A stretch of DNA of 64,000 bases. Origin: a virus. The stretch lies in IMG/VR virus record IMGVR_UViG_3300035117_000094, positions 1 through 64,000 of that record. One strand, given 5' to 3'. Below the pieces are notes generated by a model, which did no database searches, was not told where the DNA came from, and saw only the letters and a list, made by a program, of their open reading frames with translations. Position 1 is the first letter of the stretch. The number at the start of each line of letters is the position of its first letter. Below are positions 1-48,482 of the stretch, in pieces. The position numbers were made by a program, and so were the translations under genes.

Positions 1-186
1 GTCCTGCCATTCGAATGGTCAAAAAAACCGCCTTCTCATATGCGAGAACGTGCTTACCAATATCGTTAGCTAGAGTAATTACTGCGCTTGGTAGGCGCAT
101 TCTCTTTAATGGAAACGAGCTTATCGATTTAGCTTGGCTATGCTATCGCATACGGCTAGCGCCATTGGCTCGGCATGAGAGTGCGC

Positions 187-416
187 TTACCACGCAGCCA
201 CCCATGCCCTTACCACATAGGCAGCATGCCCCTACCACGTAGCCACCCATGCCCTTACCACATAGGCAGCATGCGCCTACCACGTAGCCACCCGTGCCCT
301 TACCACATAGGCAGCATGCGCCTACCACGTAGCCACCCGTGCCCTTACCACATAGGCAGCATGCGCCTACCACGTAGCCACCCGTGCCCTTACCACATAG
401 GCAGCATGCCCCTACC
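187..416. repeat. 45-bp tandem repeat, 5 copies, degenerate tail to ~500
   Basis: Unit (C/T)TACCACGTAGCCACCC(G/A)TGCCCTTACCACATAGGCAGCATGC(G/C)C at 187, 232, 277, 322, 367; each unit has two TACCAC-N-TAG half-units. Confidence 0.95.
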
Positions 417-600
417 GCACCATGGCTATGGCCTTACCTCGCAGGCAGGCCACCATTACCGCATAAGCAGCATGCCCTTACCTCGCAGGCAGGCCACCGT
501 TACCGCCACTTGCAACCCCCGTTCTGCCTAACCCTGGCTGGCATTCCCGCCATGGCAGAATGCCGTTACCGCACTCGCAGCTAAGTTACCGCCAGGTAGT

Positions 601-715
601 GAGAACGCCGTTCTCCGTTAACGCAATACACCGTTCCAAGCGCTCACAGCGCCATGGCGCTGCGCGACCCCCGTTTGCATGCCCGTACCCGTAACGCACT
701 GAGAACGTCATTCTC
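601..715. promoter_or_regulatory. Pair of operator-like palindromes
   Basis: GAGAACGCCGTTCTC (601-615) and GAGAACGTCATTCTC (701-715), 100 bp apart. Confidence 0.45.
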
Positions 716-796
716 GCAGGTCAAAGGCGTATTACGCACGTGTAAACCGAACAGTCCCGCAGCGCTCGAATACACGTCGCATGCACGCGTGTTCGC

Positions 797-901
797 TGTA
801 ACCGTGTAACCGTAGCGTAGTTCGAAATTCGCGAGTAATTACCGCCCTGGCCAGCGCTTATGTCGTGTAACCGTAAGGTGTCCGATTCCGCTGTAACCGT
901 A
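797..901 (+). repeat. Four TGTAACCGT direct repeats
   Basis: Copies at 797, 805, 866, 892. Confidence 0.7.
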
Positions 902-1337
902 GGCCGCGCCTCACCTCGCAGTCATGCACGCACGGTAGCTAGCCGTCACGCTACGTTGAATAGCGTCGCGCGGCGCTGTAAGCCTCTGTGAGCTGCTTTC
1001 ACGCTGGCATTCAGCCCGAAACCGAGCCTGCCCCGTTAACGCGCTTCACAGTGCCCCGTAGCGCGCTACAGCCTAGGTTCCGTCCCGTACGCGCATGCGC
1101 GCGTGTCGCGTGCCCGTTCCGCCTCAGCTCGCATCTCGGCTGGCTAGTGTTCGGTAGTTCGAACATCACGCAGTCACGACAACTCACGCAAAGTAGTTTT
1201 TTCGCTCGATACAGCCCTTGACCTGCGCTTTCATCAGTGTGACCGGCGTCACATTTTCCCCGCCAACCCGCATGCGCGTTCGAATCACCCGGCCTGGCCT
1301 GCGTGTATACCCTTCACACAAGCCGTTTGACGCCGTT

Positions 1338-1365
1338 TTGATTATTCACAGCGTTGCCGTAGTGT
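1338..1365 (+). promoter_or_regulatory. Putative sigma-A/HrdB-type early promoter
   Basis: TTGATT-N16-TAGTGT directly before the structured region starting ~1373. Confidence 0.5.
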
Positions 1366-1372
1366 TCCTCTT

Positions 1373-1856
1373 GTCCGGCCAGCACGGCGGACACGGAGCA
1401 AGCGGAAGCTCTCCACGAGCCGGCCTAGAGTCTGCGCGCTACGCACGATTGGTAGAAGGCGGAAATTCGGGCCTGTATGCAAGCAAGCGGGATAGTGCCC
1501 CGTAGCTTGGCTCAAACGGGCACCAAACGCACGCTGCGCGATGACGTTGCTTGAATGGCCATATAGGCCGGCAATGAGCGGTAACCAGCAACCTAACGGC
1601 TAAGTGCGACCCCCGTTAAACAAGCTTTCGCAATGCCATGCTGCCTAGCAACCAGCGTGGTACCGCGTGAAATAACGCGCTGCGCATGCCATGCGTTCCA
1701 GCCGGTGAATACACCCGGCTCTCTCCGGTTACCGGTTCCGAGTCACTGACTCCCGTTAACCCAATGGTGAGGCTACCTACAGCCTCAATTCCTGTATGGC
1801 CCTGAATGCGCAGCGCGTGAAAGTCGCGCTTCACTACAATACGTTAGGAGTCGCAA
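1373..1856 (+). ncRNA. Candidate large structured RNA / 5' leader
   Basis: Nested long-range helices 1419-1427/1564-1572 (9 bp), 1480-1486/1547-1553, 1675-1687/1806-1818 (13 bp perfect), 1688-1694/1794-1800, plus many local hairpins; no credible ORF. Confidence 0.6.
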
Positions 1857-1916
1857 ATGTGCCCTGATTGTGACCGTACGCTAGTCAATGGTCAGTGTCC
1901 CGCTTGCGATCAATAG
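1857..1916 (+). CDS. 19-aa zinc-ribbon micro-peptide MCPDCDRTLVNGQCPACDQ
   Basis: AGGAG SD 6 nt upstream of ATG; two CxxC motifs; TAG followed by a type-B-like element, as for other early genes. Confidence 0.55.
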   Translation: MCPDCDRTLVNGQCPACDQ

Positions 1917-1965
1917 CAGTACCGCGCGCCACGGTGCCCGCAAGGGATAACCACGTAAGTCGCGC
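1914..1965 (+). repeat. Minimal type-B-like element (B0)
   Basis: TAG...CACGGTGCCC-GCAA-GGGA..CCACGT shares the CACGGTGCCC/GGGA base with B2/B3. Confidence 0.4.
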
Positions 1966-2249
1966 ATTCCTTTGGTTAGCGTCGTTTCTGCCCCCGATTG
2001 CAGCGGATTGGCCACGTCATCGCATGTTGGCTGCAATTCGCCTAAGCGGATAACGAAACGCCGCTTTCCATGGGAATTCAGTTCCCTGATAGCGTGATTG
2101 CACGCGCTAAATGATCCGCAAACCGGGAAAACGGTACGTCATGGGTAACGCTCCTGTTGCGCTATGCCCGCACTGCCGGCTACAGGTAACCGGACAATTC
2201 CGCGTGCAATCACCTATCATCCGTAGTATCAGCGTAAGGAACAACCACG

Positions 2250-2537
2250 ATGGCACTCCTGCTAGAGGCTGGCCAGACAATCGGCGCTATGATCGCGTTG
2301 TGCGTGCTGCCACTTGCCTACTCCCGGACTCGCCGAGTCACGTTCGCAGTCATGGCTTTTGCCAAGCGCCGCGCGCCACGGTGGCTAGTGCCCGTACTGG
2401 TGGCTTGCGCTTTCATCCCAGGTCCCCTAGACGAGCTGCTAGTCCTAGCAGCTGTTGCCTATCCGGTTCTCAAGTCGCAGGCTAACCGCGCGGAATTCAA
2501 GTCGTGCGTTAGCGGCGCTTGGAAGGGAAGCAAGTGA
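2250..2537 (+). CDS. Hypothetical membrane protein
   Basis: AAGGA SD; hydrophobic segments; FIPGPLDE motif. Confidence 0.7.
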   Translation: MALLLEAGQTIGAMIALCVLPLAYSRTRRVTFAVMAFAKRRAPRWLVPVLVACAFIPGPLDELLVLAAVAYPVLKSQANRAEFKSCVSGAWKGSK

Positions 2538-2953
2538 ACACGGAATTCGTCGCTCGCGAGCGTGCCCGCATGGCACGAGAAGCGGCTGGCATCATGCCCG
2601 CATCGCTCACGGCCACGATGGAAGGGCGCGGCATGAACCGCACTCCCCCTCACGTGGCTACTCCTCAGGTCGCAGGCGTAATGGCGACTCGTCACGATGT
2701 AGACTTCACTCCGCACTCTGGTCAGCGCATGCGCCGACGCGCGTCACAGCGCCACAAGGGGCACAAGTTCACGCGGTTCGGTGCCATCGGCGCGATACCG
2801 CGCGGCGTTGCCGACACGGCTACCTCTGGCCGTGCCCGCCGCGCGAGCGATGCCGATAGCGGCGCTAGCACGTACGGTAGCCTGCCGGCGTTGCCCCCCG
2901 CTGGCATGACTGACCTGTCAATGCGGTATGAGCCAAACGGGCGGAACCTGTAA
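2534..2953 (+). CDS. Hypothetical basic protein
   Basis: GTGA overlap with upstream stop. Confidence 0.55.
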   Translation: MNTEFVARERARMAREAAGIMPASLTATMEGRGMNRTPPHVATPQVAGVMATRHDVDFTPHSGQRMRRRASQRHKGHKFTRFGAIGAIPRGVADTATSGRARRASDADSGASTYGSLPALPPAGMTDLSMRYEPNGRNL

Positions 2954-2955
2954 CC

Positions 2956-3375
2956 ATGAGTCACTACGCGTACTCTCCCGTAGGGTACTCATTCAACGCT
3001 GATGACTACTGCCTAGACTGCATTCCGCAGGTAGCCGCGATAGCCGGTAAGGGCAACGGTGGTAACGGCAGTAAGCGCGGGGAATGCAACTGCGCGGAGT
3101 GCCGACTTGACCGCATGGCAGCGGCGCGCGGCATCAATCGCATGGATGAGCGCACCTTTGACAGTGGCGACTTTCCCAAGCACATTCCGTACCACAATGA
3201 CATTCACTCGGAATGCGGCCCTGATCACTATCAGGATGAGGATCACCCGTCTGAGTGGTCATGCTACGCGCGCTGCGGGAAATGCCACAAGGTTATCGAT
3301 GGCACGAGCAACTCGTCCGGTCCTGACACGTGCCCGTCAATGCCGGAGCCTGCCGAGACTGAGGACGACGATTAG
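2956..3375 (+). CDS. Cys-rich hypothetical protein
   Basis: Several CxxC motifs; ends at element B1. Confidence 0.75.
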   Translation: MSHYAYSPVGYSFNADDYCLDCIPQVAAIAGKGNGGNGSKRGECNCAECRLDRMAAARGINRMDERTFDSGDFPKHIPYHNDIHSECGPDHYQDEDHPSEWSCYARCGKCHKVIDGTSNSSGPDTCPSMPEPAETEDDD

Positions 3376-3501: not shown

Positions 3502-4005
3502 ATGCCCCGTAGCGTAACGGCAGTGGCCGATATGGCTGGCATGTGGTGGGACGCCGGCGTAGTGGAGTACGTCGGGCGGTTTGACGCGTCCGAATTCGCG
3601 CGTCGCATGCTGACCAGCACAGCGCACGCCGCACTGTGGGCCGACTCCTCGCATGATGAGGACACGGACGGGAACGGGAAGTTCACGGAGGAGATAGACG
3701 ACTACGCTAACGGCTATGCGCCGGATTACGAGGACGCGCTTCCCGACGACGCGCGAGTCCAGCTGGAAACGGATGTTGACGACTTCATTCGCTCGGCATG
3801 GGTGTACCTCACGCTTGACAACATCACTCCGGAGCAAGCGGGACACGATTTCGAGTTGTCCCGTAACGGCCACGGTGCCGGATTCTGGGACCGTGGCTAC
3901 TCGCACGGGGACGAGCTGCATTCACTCGCCGAACCGTATGGCACGTTCGGCTTGGACGTGTCCGGCCACGGTGAGGACATGACCGTTTACGGATTCCACG
4001 GCTAG
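3502..4005 (+). CDS. Acidic conserved phage protein (GHDF..SRNGHGAGFWDR motif)
   Basis: Recognisable phage motif; D/E-rich. Confidence 0.8.
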   Translation: MPRSVTAVADMAGMWWDAGVVEYVGRFDASEFARRMLTSTAHAALWADSSHDEDTDGNGKFTEEIDDYANGYAPDYEDALPDDARVQLETDVDDFIRSAWVYLTLDNITPEQAGHDFELSRNGHGAGFWDRGYSHGDELHSLAEPYGTFGLDVSGHGEDMTVYGFHG

Positions 4006-5962: not shown

Positions 5963-6271
5963 GTGCCCGTTAAGGTACCATCGGCCGACCAGAGGGTTAC
6001 CGCGCAAGCTGCGGCTGAGTACTTCTGGCTAGTGGCCACGCGCGATGACCGCACCGTGAGCACTTACGACACGGCTTACTACATCACGGCCAAGCGCGCG
6101 TTCATCGTCGCTGTAAGGCAGGCATACGGCATCGGGGCACGACGGGCGGAACGGGTTTACGAGGCGCTTTCCGCCTACGGGCCATACGACACGCTTTCGG
6201 GCACCACGGGACGCGGCGTTGAGTCCTACGTGCAATTCGTCGTTAAGTACCCGCGAGAGAAGGTTTACTGA
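5963..6271 (+). CDS. Hypothetical protein
   Basis: GAGAGG SD before GTG, after B2. Confidence 0.7.
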   Translation: MPVKVPSADQRVTAQAAAEYFWLVATRDDRTVSTYDTAYYITAKRAFIVAVRQAYGIGARRAERVYEALSAYGPYDTLSGTTGRGVESYVQFVVKYPREKVY

Positions 6272-6669
6272 TGAGCGACGAAATGCGAGTTAGGTTCCCC
6301 GCCGGCGCGCGGGTACTGTGGACGGGCAGCAGTCCCCGCCCGTTCTCACAGAACGTGAACGCGCCGGCGAAGGTGCAAGGATGGCAGCGCGATTCCCTCA
6401 CTCGCGGCCACCTGGTCTTCTACGTGTCGCTAGACGGCGGCCCGAGCCACGCCACGGCGGGCGATTCCCAGCTGCGCTACCCGTGCCCGCAATGCGGGGA
6501 GCCGCTGGAATGGCGCGGCCCGTTTGACGGGCGGGCGGCGTCCACGGGAGTCACGGGCGGGCATGAGGGGTTCGGCGAAACGCTGATGTGCGACGCCGGC
6601 CACTGGCACGCGTTCATTCAGCTTGGCGTGATACCTCCCGAGCGCATCCTTACCGTGATCGACCTCTAG
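6271..6669 (+). CDS. Hypothetical protein with zinc-ribbon (CPQC..CxxxH)
   Basis: TGATG coupling; ends at A2. Confidence 0.7.
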   Translation: MSDEMRVRFPAGARVLWTGSSPRPFSQNVNAPAKVQGWQRDSLTRGHLVFYVSLDGGPSHATAGDSQLRYPCPQCGEPLEWRGPFDGRAASTGVTGGHEGFGETLMCDAGHWHAFIQLGVIPPERILTVIDL

Positions 6670-6757: not shown

Positions 6758-7339
6758 ATGGCTTGGAACGTTTACGCGATGCGCACGGCTAACCAGGGCA
6801 AGGGCGGTCACTGGTTTGATGCGGGCGCAATGCGCTTCTTCAATGGCCGCATCAGCGGGGAGGTTCACAGCGCGGGCAAGAATGCCGGCCAGTACTTCGT
6901 GTCATCCGAGCGGTACGACGACGACACGCCGCGCCTCTACTCAGTGCGCCGGTTCGATCCTGAGACGGCCGACGTGATGGATGCCCCGGGGCATCACTTC
7001 CAGGAGTACGCGTCATTGTCCGGCGCGCACGGCGCGGCCAAGCGCGCGGCGGCCAAGGAGGCGGCGACGGGATGGTGCAAGCGAGACGCCGACGCGCATT
7101 CCGGCCACCTGAGAGGGAGTGACAAGGCGTGCCCGAACTGCGGGACAATCGCGCTGGCCAAGACGGACGAGTGGATGATCACGGGCATCGCGTCCGATGG
7201 TAACCGGGCGCGGTTCGTCATCCACGACTCGCGCGAGTTCGCCGACGTGGCCGCGCACGCTGCGGAATCGGCTGCCCGCGTGTGGGGGGAAGGCTGCCTG
7301 ATAACTAACCTCACCATGCAAGAGGCAACACGCGGCTAG
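6758..7339 (+). CDS. Conserved phage protein (GHWFD..MRFF..YFVSSE..R.YSVR)
   Basis: Recognisable phage motif; bounded by A2 and B3. Confidence 0.8.
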   Translation: MAWNVYAMRTANQGKGGHWFDAGAMRFFNGRISGEVHSAGKNAGQYFVSSERYDDDTPRLYSVRRFDPETADVMDAPGHHFQEYASLSGAHGAAKRAAAKEAATGWCKRDADAHSGHLRGSDKACPNCGTIALAKTDEWMITGIASDGNRARFVIHDSREFADVAAHAAESAARVWGEGCLITNLTMQEATRG

Positions 7340-7419
7340 CGCCGGCGCACGGTGCCCTTCCGCCTGGTCCTGGCCGGCGCTGGCCAAGACCAGGCGGAAC
7401 GGGACGCCGCGTGCTTACG
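7333..7419 (+). repeat. Type-B element B3
   Basis: Identical to 5841-5927. Confidence 0.95.
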
Positions 7420-7460
7420 TGAATAGCACGAAACCTGCCCACATCACGAGAGGTACGACG

Positions 7461-37214: not shown

Positions 37215-37373
37215 TAAGTAAGTGTGAGTGTGAGACGGGCACCCTTAGCTCCCTAAGAGCGCTACCCCCAACACACAGGACCCCCCCTAGTGCTACCCCC
37301 TCAGCCTCGTAAGGCCGATACCCCTCTTATACTTACACTTACTTAATAAATAAATAAATAAATATATATATAA
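37215..37373. other. Putative replication origin
   Basis: 20-bp inverted repeat (37215-37234/37326-37345), G(C/A)TACCCC repeats, 31-nt pure A/T tract, between divergent polymerase and primase-helicase genes. Confidence 0.7.
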
Positions 37374-42704: not shown

Positions 42705-43562
42705 GTGGCTACGGGCAGGCACGGCATACCGGAGTTCAGGGACCTGGCGGAGGCGAACACGATCCTGCGGGTGCAGGTAGGCTCGGGCGTCCACGGCATA
42801 GCGATCGAGGGCACCGATGACCGCGACGAGATGGGCGTGTGCGTCGAGCCGCAGGACTACGTCTTCGGGCTGCTGCCCCTGGGCGTCCCCGAGCGGTTCG
42901 AGCAGTACGAGCACCACACCGCGTGGGAGCGGGAGGGCGGCCTGAAGAACCGGTCCGGCCCCGGCGACCTGGACGTCACCGTCTACTCGCTGCGCAAGTT
43001 CCTCCGGCTGGCGCTCAACGGCAACCCGGCGATCATCGGCACGTTCTTCACCCCGCCCCGGGAAATCATCTCATGCAACGGCCTCGGGCTGCGGCTCCTG
43101 GAGCTGGCCCCGCTGATCGTCAGCAAGGAGGCCGGACCGAAGTACCTCGGCTACCTGAAGGCCCAGCGCCGGTCGATGGAGTCCGGCAACGGCAAGGGCC
43201 GCGACGTGACCCGCAAGGAGCTGGTCGGGCGGTACGGCTTCGACACCAAGTTCGCCGGGCACATGATCAGGCTGGGCCTCCAGGGCGCTGAGCTGCTGGA
43301 GACGGGCCGGATCACGCTGCCGATGAGGGCGCACGAGCGGGGCATCGTCCGGTCCGTGCGCACGGGGGCCTTCACGATGCAGGCTTGCCTGGACTTCGCC
43401 GGGGACCTGGAGGCGCGCGTCCGGCGCGCGATGGAGGCCAGCGCCCTGCCTGAGCACCCTGACCGGGAGGCCGTGAACAGGTGGCTCGTGCAGGCGTACC
43501 TGGAGCACTGGGGACTGGCCCCGGACAGCGACCCCGGGGCCATGATGAGGTCGTGGGAATAG
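42705..43562 (+). CDS. Pol-beta superfamily nucleotidyltransferase (RlaP/YcgL-like)
   Basis: GSGVHG..DDRDEMG (GS..DxD), third Asp in DLDVT, NGNP, FDTKFA.H..RL. Confidence 0.85.
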   Translation: MATGRHGIPEFRDLAEANTILRVQVGSGVHGIAIEGTDDRDEMGVCVEPQDYVFGLLPLGVPERFEQYEHHTAWEREGGLKNRSGPGDLDVTVYSLRKFLRLALNGNPAIIGTFFTPPREIISCNGLGLRLLELAPLIVSKEAGPKYLGYLKAQRRSMESGNGKGRDVTRKELVGRYGFDTKFAGHMIRLGLQGAELLETGRITLPMRAHERGIVRSVRTGAFTMQACLDFAGDLEARVRRAMEASALPEHPDREAVNRWLVQAYLEHWGLAPDSDPGAMMRSWE

Positions 43563-43601
43563 CGTCCGGGGTACTTGCGGGAGGGGGGTAGAGTGGGCGT
43601 C

Positions 43602-44060
43602 ATGACAGAGACCCCGCTCACTCCCCTCCCGCTTACCGCCGAGCAGATCGACGTTATCCAGTCGCTGTTCCCGCAGGCGTTCCTCATCGCGCCGATGCCC
43701 GCCGTCAAGGCCCCGGCGCGCGTGGTGGTCAAGCCCGCGCCGGACTCCCGGCTGGAGGGGCTGCTCACCCTGTTCAAGTCGCGCCAGGAGGCGTCGGCGG
43801 CGGCCGAGACGGCGTTCAAGGACCTGAAGAGGGCCATCCTCGCCGAGCTGGAGGCGCTGTACCCGGAGGCCGCCCGGCCCACCGAGGCGTACGAGGTTCC
43901 CGCCACCGCGCTGTACCCGCAGCTCACCTTTCAGTACAAGGAGGTCCCGTACCTCCCGGCGCCGAGGATCCGCGAGTTCCTGCCCGCCGTCTACGACGCG
44001 TTCCACGGCGTGAAGCGGTACTGGGAGCTGCGCGAGACGGGCAAGGGCGGCAAGCGGTGA
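43602..44060 (+). CDS. Hypothetical protein (probably leaderless)
   Basis: TAGAGT seven nt before ATG. Confidence 0.65.
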   Translation: MTETPLTPLPLTAEQIDVIQSLFPQAFLIAPMPAVKAPARVVVKPAPDSRLEGLLTLFKSRQEASAAAETAFKDLKRAILAELEALYPEAARPTEAYEVPATALYPQLTFQYKEVPYLPAPRIREFLPAVYDAFHGVKRYWELRETGKGGKR

Positions 44061-45413: not shown

Positions 45414-45638
45414 GTGACCGCGCCGGCGCCTAGCGACGGGGACAAGTACCTGTGGTGGCAGCGGGGCGCCGAGGACAACGAGAGGATTCACGCCGAGAAG
45501 ATGACCGCCGAGGCACGTGAGCTGTGCATGCTCCTGGAAGACCTCGCGAAGCTCCGCAGCCCTGCTACAGCCCTTGACCTGCTCACCTCAGCGGCCCGTA
45601 TCTACTGCCCGCACGTACTGAAGAGGAAGTACCGCTGA
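45414..45638 (+). CDS. Hypothetical protein
   Basis: Coupled on both sides. Confidence 0.55.
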   Translation: MTAPAPSDGDKYLWWQRGAEDNERIHAEKMTAEARELCMLLEDLAKLRSPATALDLLTSAARIYCPHVLKRKYR

Positions 45639-48375: not shown

Positions 48376-48406
48376 CAACCCGCAGGAGAATCCGGCGCCC
48401 CTGCCG

Positions 48407-48432
48407 GGAATTCCCGGACCATCGTCTGGGTT
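48407..48432 (+). promoter_or_regulatory. ECF-type promoter GGAAT-N18-GTT inside a 15-bp inverted repeat
   Basis: GCGCCCCTGCCGGGA/TCCCGGCAGGGGCGC flank it. Confidence 0.75.
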
Positions 48433-48482
48433 ACTCCCGGCAGGGGCGCTTCCGCTCTCATCGCAGACGAAAGGACAGCCGC

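Follow-up and report, generated by a model that had tools for sequence, protein, structure and literature searches.

Introduction

In the cluster A phages L5, D29 and StarStuff, a non-coding region of ~500 bp at the end of the genome separates the early promoter from the first gene, and the leader RNA derived from it is described as the most abundant, stable, processed transcript and as toxic to the host (Dedrick et al. 2017, PMC5712189). Long non-coding leaders of phage early operons have been met repeatedly, and L5 and D29 are the cases studied best. At the left end of phage T7, a terminal repeat is followed by short repeats, the host-type promoters A1-A3, a leader with the RNase III site R0.3, and gene 0.3. 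The putL and putR sites of HK022 and the nut sites of lambda are folded RNAs that form immediately behind early promoters and act on their own polymerase. GOLLD and ROOL, both represented in Rfam, are large, ornate multi-helix non-coding RNAs borne by phages and prophages.

How does the stretch at positions 1373-1856 of the genome analyzed here compare with these systems? Its closest counterpart is the cluster A leader, since both are ~500 nt without an ORF that lie right behind an early promoter (here a candidate) at the very tip of a linear genome, and both precede small early genes and diverge rapidly in sequence, here in a probable actinophage. The two differ in that the present stretch sits at the opposite genome end and has no sequence similarity to its counterpart, and no very stable four-way-junction domain like the one predicted here is described in the pertinent parts of the cluster A report (PMC5712189). 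Abundance, stability, processing and toxicity are properties that were demonstrated for the cluster A leader. T7 has the same order of parts at its left end, with a structured leader of several hundred nt and a large hairpin just ahead of the first early gene. However, phage and host are unrelated in that comparison, and the apical sequence of the hairpin found here (named X) is invariant, a property not required of RNase III sites. The locus adds an uncultured, probably actinobacterial phage to the cases of long early leaders, and the first DNA to enter the cell would apparently be gene-free for 2.2 kb.

Results

Source genome and left terminus

The DNA that was analyzed (the window) covers 64 kb from the start of a linear IMG/VR record of 103,588 bp with a completeness estimate of 88%. 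The genome encodes a primase-polymerase/helicase, a DNA polymerase, a helicase, tail and lysis proteins and tRNAs, only four of the latter being detected in the window by Rfam at gathering scores. All genes up to ~24 kb share one strand (+), which is also that of the leader, and G+C content is 58-62% over the first 6 kb and ~70% in the rest of the genome. No close relative was found by megablast or blastn among 50,697 phage records. The sequence belongs to an uncultured soil phage. Because the top cultured-phage matches of its primase, from Gordonia, Mycobacterium and Rhodococcus phages, reach only ~24% identity, it has no close cultured relative, and its host is probably actinobacterial. Primase relatives in IMG/VR are 40-43% identical at best, closer ones being known at 53-69%, and the early proteins encoded at 2956-3375 and 3502-4005 retrieved no relatives from IMG/VR.

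The left end of the record (positions 1-30) starts with GTCC followed by an A-run and then CCG. Contig L053 (positions 1-30) starts with the same GTCC at a point homologous to the window start, with its A-run ~20 nt in. One end of the 181-kb record G001 (locus L011, positions 1-30 on the reverse strand) starts with TCCC, one base off the window's point, and has the same A-run; in both contigs CCG comes after the run. The sequence of L012 continues through the homologous point. Two independent contigs thus share the window's start to within one base, which indicates that a physical end of the genome, or the boundary of a terminal repeat, lies at position 1 and is common to distantly related phages.

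The first 2.2 kb are gene-poor and contain, in order, repeats, a promoter-like site, the leader and the first genes. A short way in from the genome end there are tandem repeats of 45 bp (5.2 copies, 182-416) and 22 bp (3.2 copies, 434-504) and, at 89-103, a partial copy in inverted orientation, and the repeats at 89-504 are candidate packaging or origin iterons. The arrays vary between phages, in that the equivalent place in L053, L012 and L018 is occupied by repeats unrelated to these. Approximately 1 kb of non-coding DNA lies between the repeat arrays and the leader. It includes a perfect palindrome, TGTGA-N6-TCACA, read from the sequence at 1238-1253, which we take to be the consensus of CRP/GlxR-type operators and which may serve as an operator for a host regulator or a phage repressor. 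The N6 palindrome recurs upstream of the leader in L012, and L018 has a version with an N4 spacer there. A 17-mer that contains TTGACC occurs in identical copies at 1210-1226 and 45566-45582, the second being ~55 nt upstream of the start of a 283-aa ORF (45638), and could represent a shared -35 element.

Promoter candidate and coding potential

An initial annotation had proposed that 1373-1856 forms a new large structured RNA of ~480 nt directly behind a promoter. The promoter motif is present as annotated: a sigma-A-like candidate on the + strand (1338-1365) consists of TTGATT (1338-1343), a 16-nt spacer and TAGTGT (1360-1365). It is the sole match to TTGAYN-N16-18-TANNNT on the + strand of the first 28 kb, and the estimated chance expectation for such a match at local composition is ~0.07 per 2 kb. 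However, a stricter promoter scan did not return this motif, and the promoter is a candidate defined by consensus match only. Transcription may also start upstream of the TTGATT site, given that the 17-mer at 1210-1226 recurs before the gene at 45566.

Coding of protein by the stretch was rejected. The GC content of its six candidate ORFs is flat over codon positions 1, 2 and 3, as compared with a GC3 of 0.66-0.83 in the neighbouring early genes, and the ORFs had no Pfam match and no tblastn match in 69 related loci, so that the annotated absence of a credible ORF stands. A known RNA family was likewise rejected on the basis of covariance models and ARAGORN. Rfam 15, which covers riboswitches, ribozymes, tmRNA, RNase P, 6S, introns, GOLLD, ROOL, OLE, HEARO and others, gave no match in positions 1-2600 even at E<=10, and ARAGORN reported 0 tRNA or tmRNA genes in 1-3000. 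The initial annotation had not recognized the stretch as a tmRNA, RNase P, 6S/Ms1 or group I/II intron either. No intrinsic terminators were predicted in 100-3000.

The end of the stretch overlaps a Shine-Dalgarno sequence (AGGAG) that precedes a 19-codon ORF with a CxxC...CxxC pattern (1843-1916, + strand, ORF start at 1857). Coding of this mini-ORF is doubtful (GC3 0.45), and a conserved leader peptide was rejected, as the 69 related loci contain no counterpart. Right after its stop codon lies a hairpin with a GCAA-capped tip (B0; 1924-1965, + strand), which drew no terminator call. The first sizeable early gene (2250-2537, + strand) is marked by a rise in GC3 and encodes a membrane-like protein of 95 aa that has 37-40% identity by tblastn with ORFs located downstream of hairpin X in L049 and L029.

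Predicted structure of 1373-1856

Every helix in the initial annotation was found in the sequence at its annotated position. The transcript is predicted to open with two small hairpins (1373-1414, + strand) that appear in both the minimum free energy (MFE) and the centroid structure; they comprise the GTCCG/CGGAC helix (1373-1377/1388-1392) and a GGAA-capped hairpin (1395-1414). Domain 1 on the + strand is closed by the 9-bp helix GCCGGCCTA/TAGGCCGGC (1419-1427/1564-1572), and its annotated inner helices are CAAGCAA/TTGCTTG (1480-1486/1547-1553) and GTGCCC/GGGCAC (1495-1500/1518-1523). The core of domain 2 (1675-1818, + strand) consists of a perfect 13-bp helix (1675-1687/1806-1818) followed by an 8-bp helix and a four-way junction with three hairpins. 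The annotated GCCATGC/GTATGGC pairing and the three inner hairpins were thus confirmed inside the 13-bp helix, and two pairs of the 8-bp helix, 1693/1795 and 1695/1793, are G-U. An enlarged domain 2 (1592-1848, + strand) is obtained when the outer helices 1592-1598/1842-1848 and 1602-1610/1823-1831 are drawn around the core and an additional hairpin at 1629-1668. In this single MFE prediction, the 7 bp of the outermost helix pair 1592-1598 with the Shine-Dalgarno region of the mini-ORF at 1842-1848, and the ribosome-binding site may consequently be occluded.

Folding energies were compared with those of dinucleotide shuffles and expressed as MFE z-scores. The full 484 nt fold on the + strand with -195.5 kcal/mol (z -4.03; none of 100 shuffles was as good) and have a z-score of -1.05 on the - strand. 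A sliding scan with 150-nt windows confined the signal to 1651-1850. For domain 2 (1670-1822) the z-score is -8.28 on the + strand and -5.15 on the - strand, the MFE structure is close to the centroid, and none of 200 shuffles folds as well. Framed to 150 nt, the core has a z-score of -7.35, which exceeds that of every other framed element with which it was compared in the 103.6-kb genome (-5.0 to -6.5). The enlarged domain, folded as 1585-1862, has z-scores of -5.76 (+) and -3.22 (-). Domain 1 (1415-1575), in contrast, is near chance with z-scores of -1.93 (+) and -2.15 (-). Its closing and inner helices exist in the sequence, but the MFE structure contains local pairings instead of the two inner helices, and for this reason the interior of the domain is ambiguous. 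The annotation withstood the refuting checks that were run on it: no Rfam family matched, and the z-score of the 3' half lies far beyond shuffled controls, which that of the 5' domain does not. The very stable 3' domain is thus real. A single architecture of ~480 nt is not established, and the claim of one structured RNA of that size is not supported as a unit because its 5' domain is indistinguishable from chance.

Can these energies assign the structure to a strand? The region 1585-1862 folds about equally well on either strand (-109.7 kcal/mol on + vs -111.9 on -), and since the gap in z-scores between strands arises largely from base composition, thermodynamics as modeled neither fixes the strand nor excludes a role at the DNA level. 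Strand assignment by comparing the energies of the two strands was accordingly rejected as confounded by composition. The genome contains 27 perfect inverted repeats of at least 12 bp within 300 nt, as opposed to ~10 in block shuffles (~2.7-fold enrichment). With such repeats common throughout the genome, a lone 13-bp helix would not be remarkable; two perfect 13-bp helices within 540 nt, each built around nested hairpins, are.

Search for relatives of the stretch

The stretch is not repeated elsewhere in the genome. In the set of 69 loci anchored on hairpin X that was used for leader comparison, Smith-Waterman and blastn searches against the 1.3-2.3 kb upstream yielded nothing above shuffled controls. 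An nhmmer profile of the alignable leaders (L012, L018, L029, L031, L049, L053, L058, L075 and L077) did not match the window, a covariance model of domain 2 made from its single sequence (R1) matched only itself, and neither megablast nor blastn against the phage collection linked the stretch to the cluster A leader. In the absence of a homolog, no helix in 1373-1856 has covariation. The proposal of a new RNA family is thus not supported by any collection that was searched.

Phages with the same terminus and hairpin X have unrelated sequence at the position of 1373-1856, which points to a lineage-specific, fast-evolving leader and argues for that reading over a conserved large ncRNA of the GOLLD or ROOL type. 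GOLLD and ROOL have conserved cores and covariation over many genomes, whereas the present stretch has neither a homolog nor a covariance-model match, and homologs with compensatory changes, the mark of a conserved large phage ncRNA, were not found in these searches. Because the relatives are distant (34% identity for the L018 primase, for example), the missing similarity is weak evidence against function. The annotation had offered either a large ncRNA or an antitermination or regulatory leader as its interpretation, and the setting fits an early leader, since the stretch lies 1.4-1.9 kb from the genome end, behind a promoter-like site and on the strand of the early genes.

Leaders of the related phages contain a few structured windows (z -3 to -4.7). 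Four of them share a small hairpin (L012 3168-3219, - strand; L018 3797-3848; L058 1020-1071; L075 818-869, - strand) with a conserved 5' segment, CUAGCAAUC, and a conserved loop, CCCAAUAAG. The four stems differ in sequence, all are paired, and they have G-U pairs on the + strand. This covarying hairpin indicates that leaders of this phage group include RNA structure formed from the + strand. A homologous hairpin at 1585-1630 of the window was considered and is not claimed, because the resemblance is by eye only and the corresponding model (R2) missed the window. In L012, a tRNA adjoins a short tmRNA-like match (6006-6295) that scores 47.2 bits, at the threshold.

A conserved hairpin downstream of the stretch

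Approximately 280 nt downstream of 1373-1856 lies hairpin X (2087-2219, + strand), in which a perfect 13-bp closing helix (2094-2106/2201-2213) plus 5 bp surrounds an invariant apical core at 2144-2168. Its z-score in the window is -5.96 (2094-2213). The 45 nt at 2133-2177 are 91% identical in G001, the primase of which is only ~42% identical in its N-terminal part, and a 1-nt indel between the two copies shows that these 45 nt are not coding. The core pattern is GGTAACGCT, 1-3 nt, and GTTGCGCTATGCC, 24 nt in all, and was found in 69 loci on contigs of uncultured phages (14, from IMG/VR) and of metagenomes (55). A search of 185,579 prokaryote species genomes turned up no exact copy, cultured phages gave only two weak, chance-level matches (E ~4), and Rfam matched neither X in window positions 1-2600 nor the leaders in ten related loci.

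The core sits, in nearly all loci, at the tip of a long hairpin, the flanks of which differ in sequence yet pair. Around the core there is a mean of ~34 pairs; the median z-score of flank complementarity is 2.8, and 20 of 45 loci exceed 3. The counts of G-U vs A-C in its outer stems, 44 vs 59, do not assign X to a strand. X occurs once per genome in five near-complete genomes and comprises at least two sub-families, which are told apart by the conserved flanks adjacent to the core. In 64 of 70 loci X is followed by a Shine-Dalgarno sequence and start codon in the same orientation, mostly 45-220 nt past the core, and the genes that follow fall into more than 30 unrelated groups. This fixed orientation fits transcription of X together with the gene after it, and such co-transcription would be consistent with an upstream leader in the same transcript. 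The family signature, a core pattern on a long variable hairpin on the strand of the next gene, is present at 2094-2213 and not at 1373-1856. From these comparisons, X is the conserved part of the leader, the one on which selection across phages is strong. It represents a new conserved motif, and 1373-1856 is a new orphan leader of a known kind.

Several other explanations of X were rejected: a gene-specific riboswitch, given the more than 30 unrelated downstream groups, and a mimic of a host RNA or an attP core, given the lack of an exact copy in the prokaryote genomes. Apparent starts of L013 and L014 2.1 kb upstream of X were also set aside, as both loci are cut pieces of longer contigs. 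In L079, a contig of low G+C content, the X hairpin (1068-1160) has a U-run directly 3' of it and so resembles the tip of an intrinsic terminator.

Discussion

The reading that we favor, with a probability of roughly one half, is that 1373-1856 is the first part of an untranslated leader of ~880 nt (1373-2249) that belongs to the leftmost early operon of a linear phage genome. The rationale for this statement is as follows. The stability of domain 2 and of the enlarged fold at 1592-1848 is far beyond that of shuffled sequences; four adjacent nested inverted repeats form a junction that is typical of single-strand folding; the stretch has no coding signal; and it lies near an end common to three contigs, behind a promoter-like match and on the early-gene strand. 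The fixed orientation of X, the covarying hairpin in related leaders and the precedent of L5, D29 and StarStuff point the same way. The arrangement is that of an early-operon leader, with several hundred ORF-free nt from the early promoter candidate to the first gene near the genome end.

We hypothesize that the host RNA polymerase would start ~7 nt past the TAGTGT box and that the small 5' hairpins would shield the RNA from RNases that depend on the 5' end. The loosely structured domain 1 would be made next, followed by the compact and very stable four-way-junction domain at 1592-1848, the outer helix of which could pair with the ribosome-binding site of the 19-codon mini-ORF. A further hairpin and then X would follow, X ending up ~80 nt ahead of the first real gene. 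Such a leader most likely would act in cis, such that the early message is stabilized or insulated or the leader is processed out, and stable non-coding fragments may remain, as with the Pleft leader of L5 and D29.

A bolder form of this reading, which we hold to be unlikely, treats the whole leader of ~0.9 kb as a new modular early-leader RNA. A lineage-specific junction domain would be joined to X, X would bind a conserved host machine at the start of infection, and domain 2 would be a functional RNA and not a passive leader. If this were true, the machine bound by X could be RNA polymerase, the ribosome, an RNase or a defence sensor, and domain 2 could be a stabilizer, a decoy or a switch over the ribosome-binding site of the mini-ORF. 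The core of X is identical in phages with few or no common genes. X offers an experimental handle, through pull-downs from host extract and reporter fusions, and a search anchor for leaders of this kind, while the value of 1373-1856 by itself is for now modest.

An alternative hypothesis is that the RNA is a free-standing large ncRNA, either the ~480 nt or the 260-nt 3' domain, that accumulates early and acts in trans on a host factor, for instance as a decoy; its target could be a nuclease, a defence sensor or the transcription machinery. The leader RNA of L5 and D29 offers a precedent, being abundant, cut to species of 100-500 nt and toxic to the host (PMC5712189), and a very stable, well-defined domain (MFE close to the centroid) that matches no known family would suit such a role. 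However, there is no terminator or obvious 3' end ahead of the genes. The 5' half is not significantly structured, and phages that share the terminus and X do not conserve the stretch, unlike GOLLD, ROOL and other large RNAs with their conserved cores. We therefore regard a trans-acting ncRNA as improbable.

Could the repeats instead work as DNA? They might form a cruciform, or hairpins in single-stranded DNA, and serve as an origin of replication, a signal for packaging or ejection or a site of single-strand initiation; in our estimation this is just as improbable. The stretch adjoins iteron-like tandem repeats and the physical genome end, the two strands hardly differ in folding, its closing repeat is perfect, and an element of similar build lies at 37215-37345 between the divergent polymerase and primase genes. 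On the other hand, a nested junction of four repeats, with G-U pairs in two helices of the + strand, fits RNA better than it fits sites in double-stranded DNA; the stretch lies downstream of a promoter-like site and lines up with the early genes and with X, whose orientation is fixed; and no replication or packaging gene is adjacent.

Slightly less probable again is a leader for processive antitermination that modifies the host RNA polymerase in cis, with domain 2 or X as the active RNA. The put and nut sites provide a plausible working model for either element by analogy, the stretch being located directly behind an early promoter candidate at the head of a long block of genes on one strand, and X being single-copy and conserved across differing gene sets, as expected for an RNA that binds a conserved host machine. 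The put RNAs are two stem-loops of ~35 nt, in contrast to the 144-nt junction found here, and neither sequence nor model searches matched put, nut or any Rfam family. Moreover, domain 2 is not conserved, and 100-3000 contains no predicted intrinsic terminators that would need to be overridden. Finally, chance pairing without function in GC-rich non-coding DNA is very improbable and would apply to domain 1 only, which is at chance level in a setting where a block-shuffled genome has ~10 perfect 12-bp inverted repeats within 300 nt; for 1592-1848 the folding results (domain 2 z -7 to -8, 0 of 200 shuffles as good) make a chance origin unlikely, as do two 13-bp helices with nested hairpins within 540 nt, one of which, that of X, is demonstrably conserved.

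Other parts of the genome also contain strongly structured elements. The element at 37215-37345 has an A+T-rich closing stem of ~21 bp around a C-rich interior of ~90 nt with small hairpins (z -6.3); it occupies the gap between the divergent genes for DNA polymerase (- strand) and primase (+ strand), where it may serve as a replication origin or a control element. Further very stable long hairpins (z -5 to -6.5) are located at 43551-43700, 48395-48449 and 7330-7420, and the last of these, at 7.3 kb, corresponds to the repeat that the initial annotation had designated type B.
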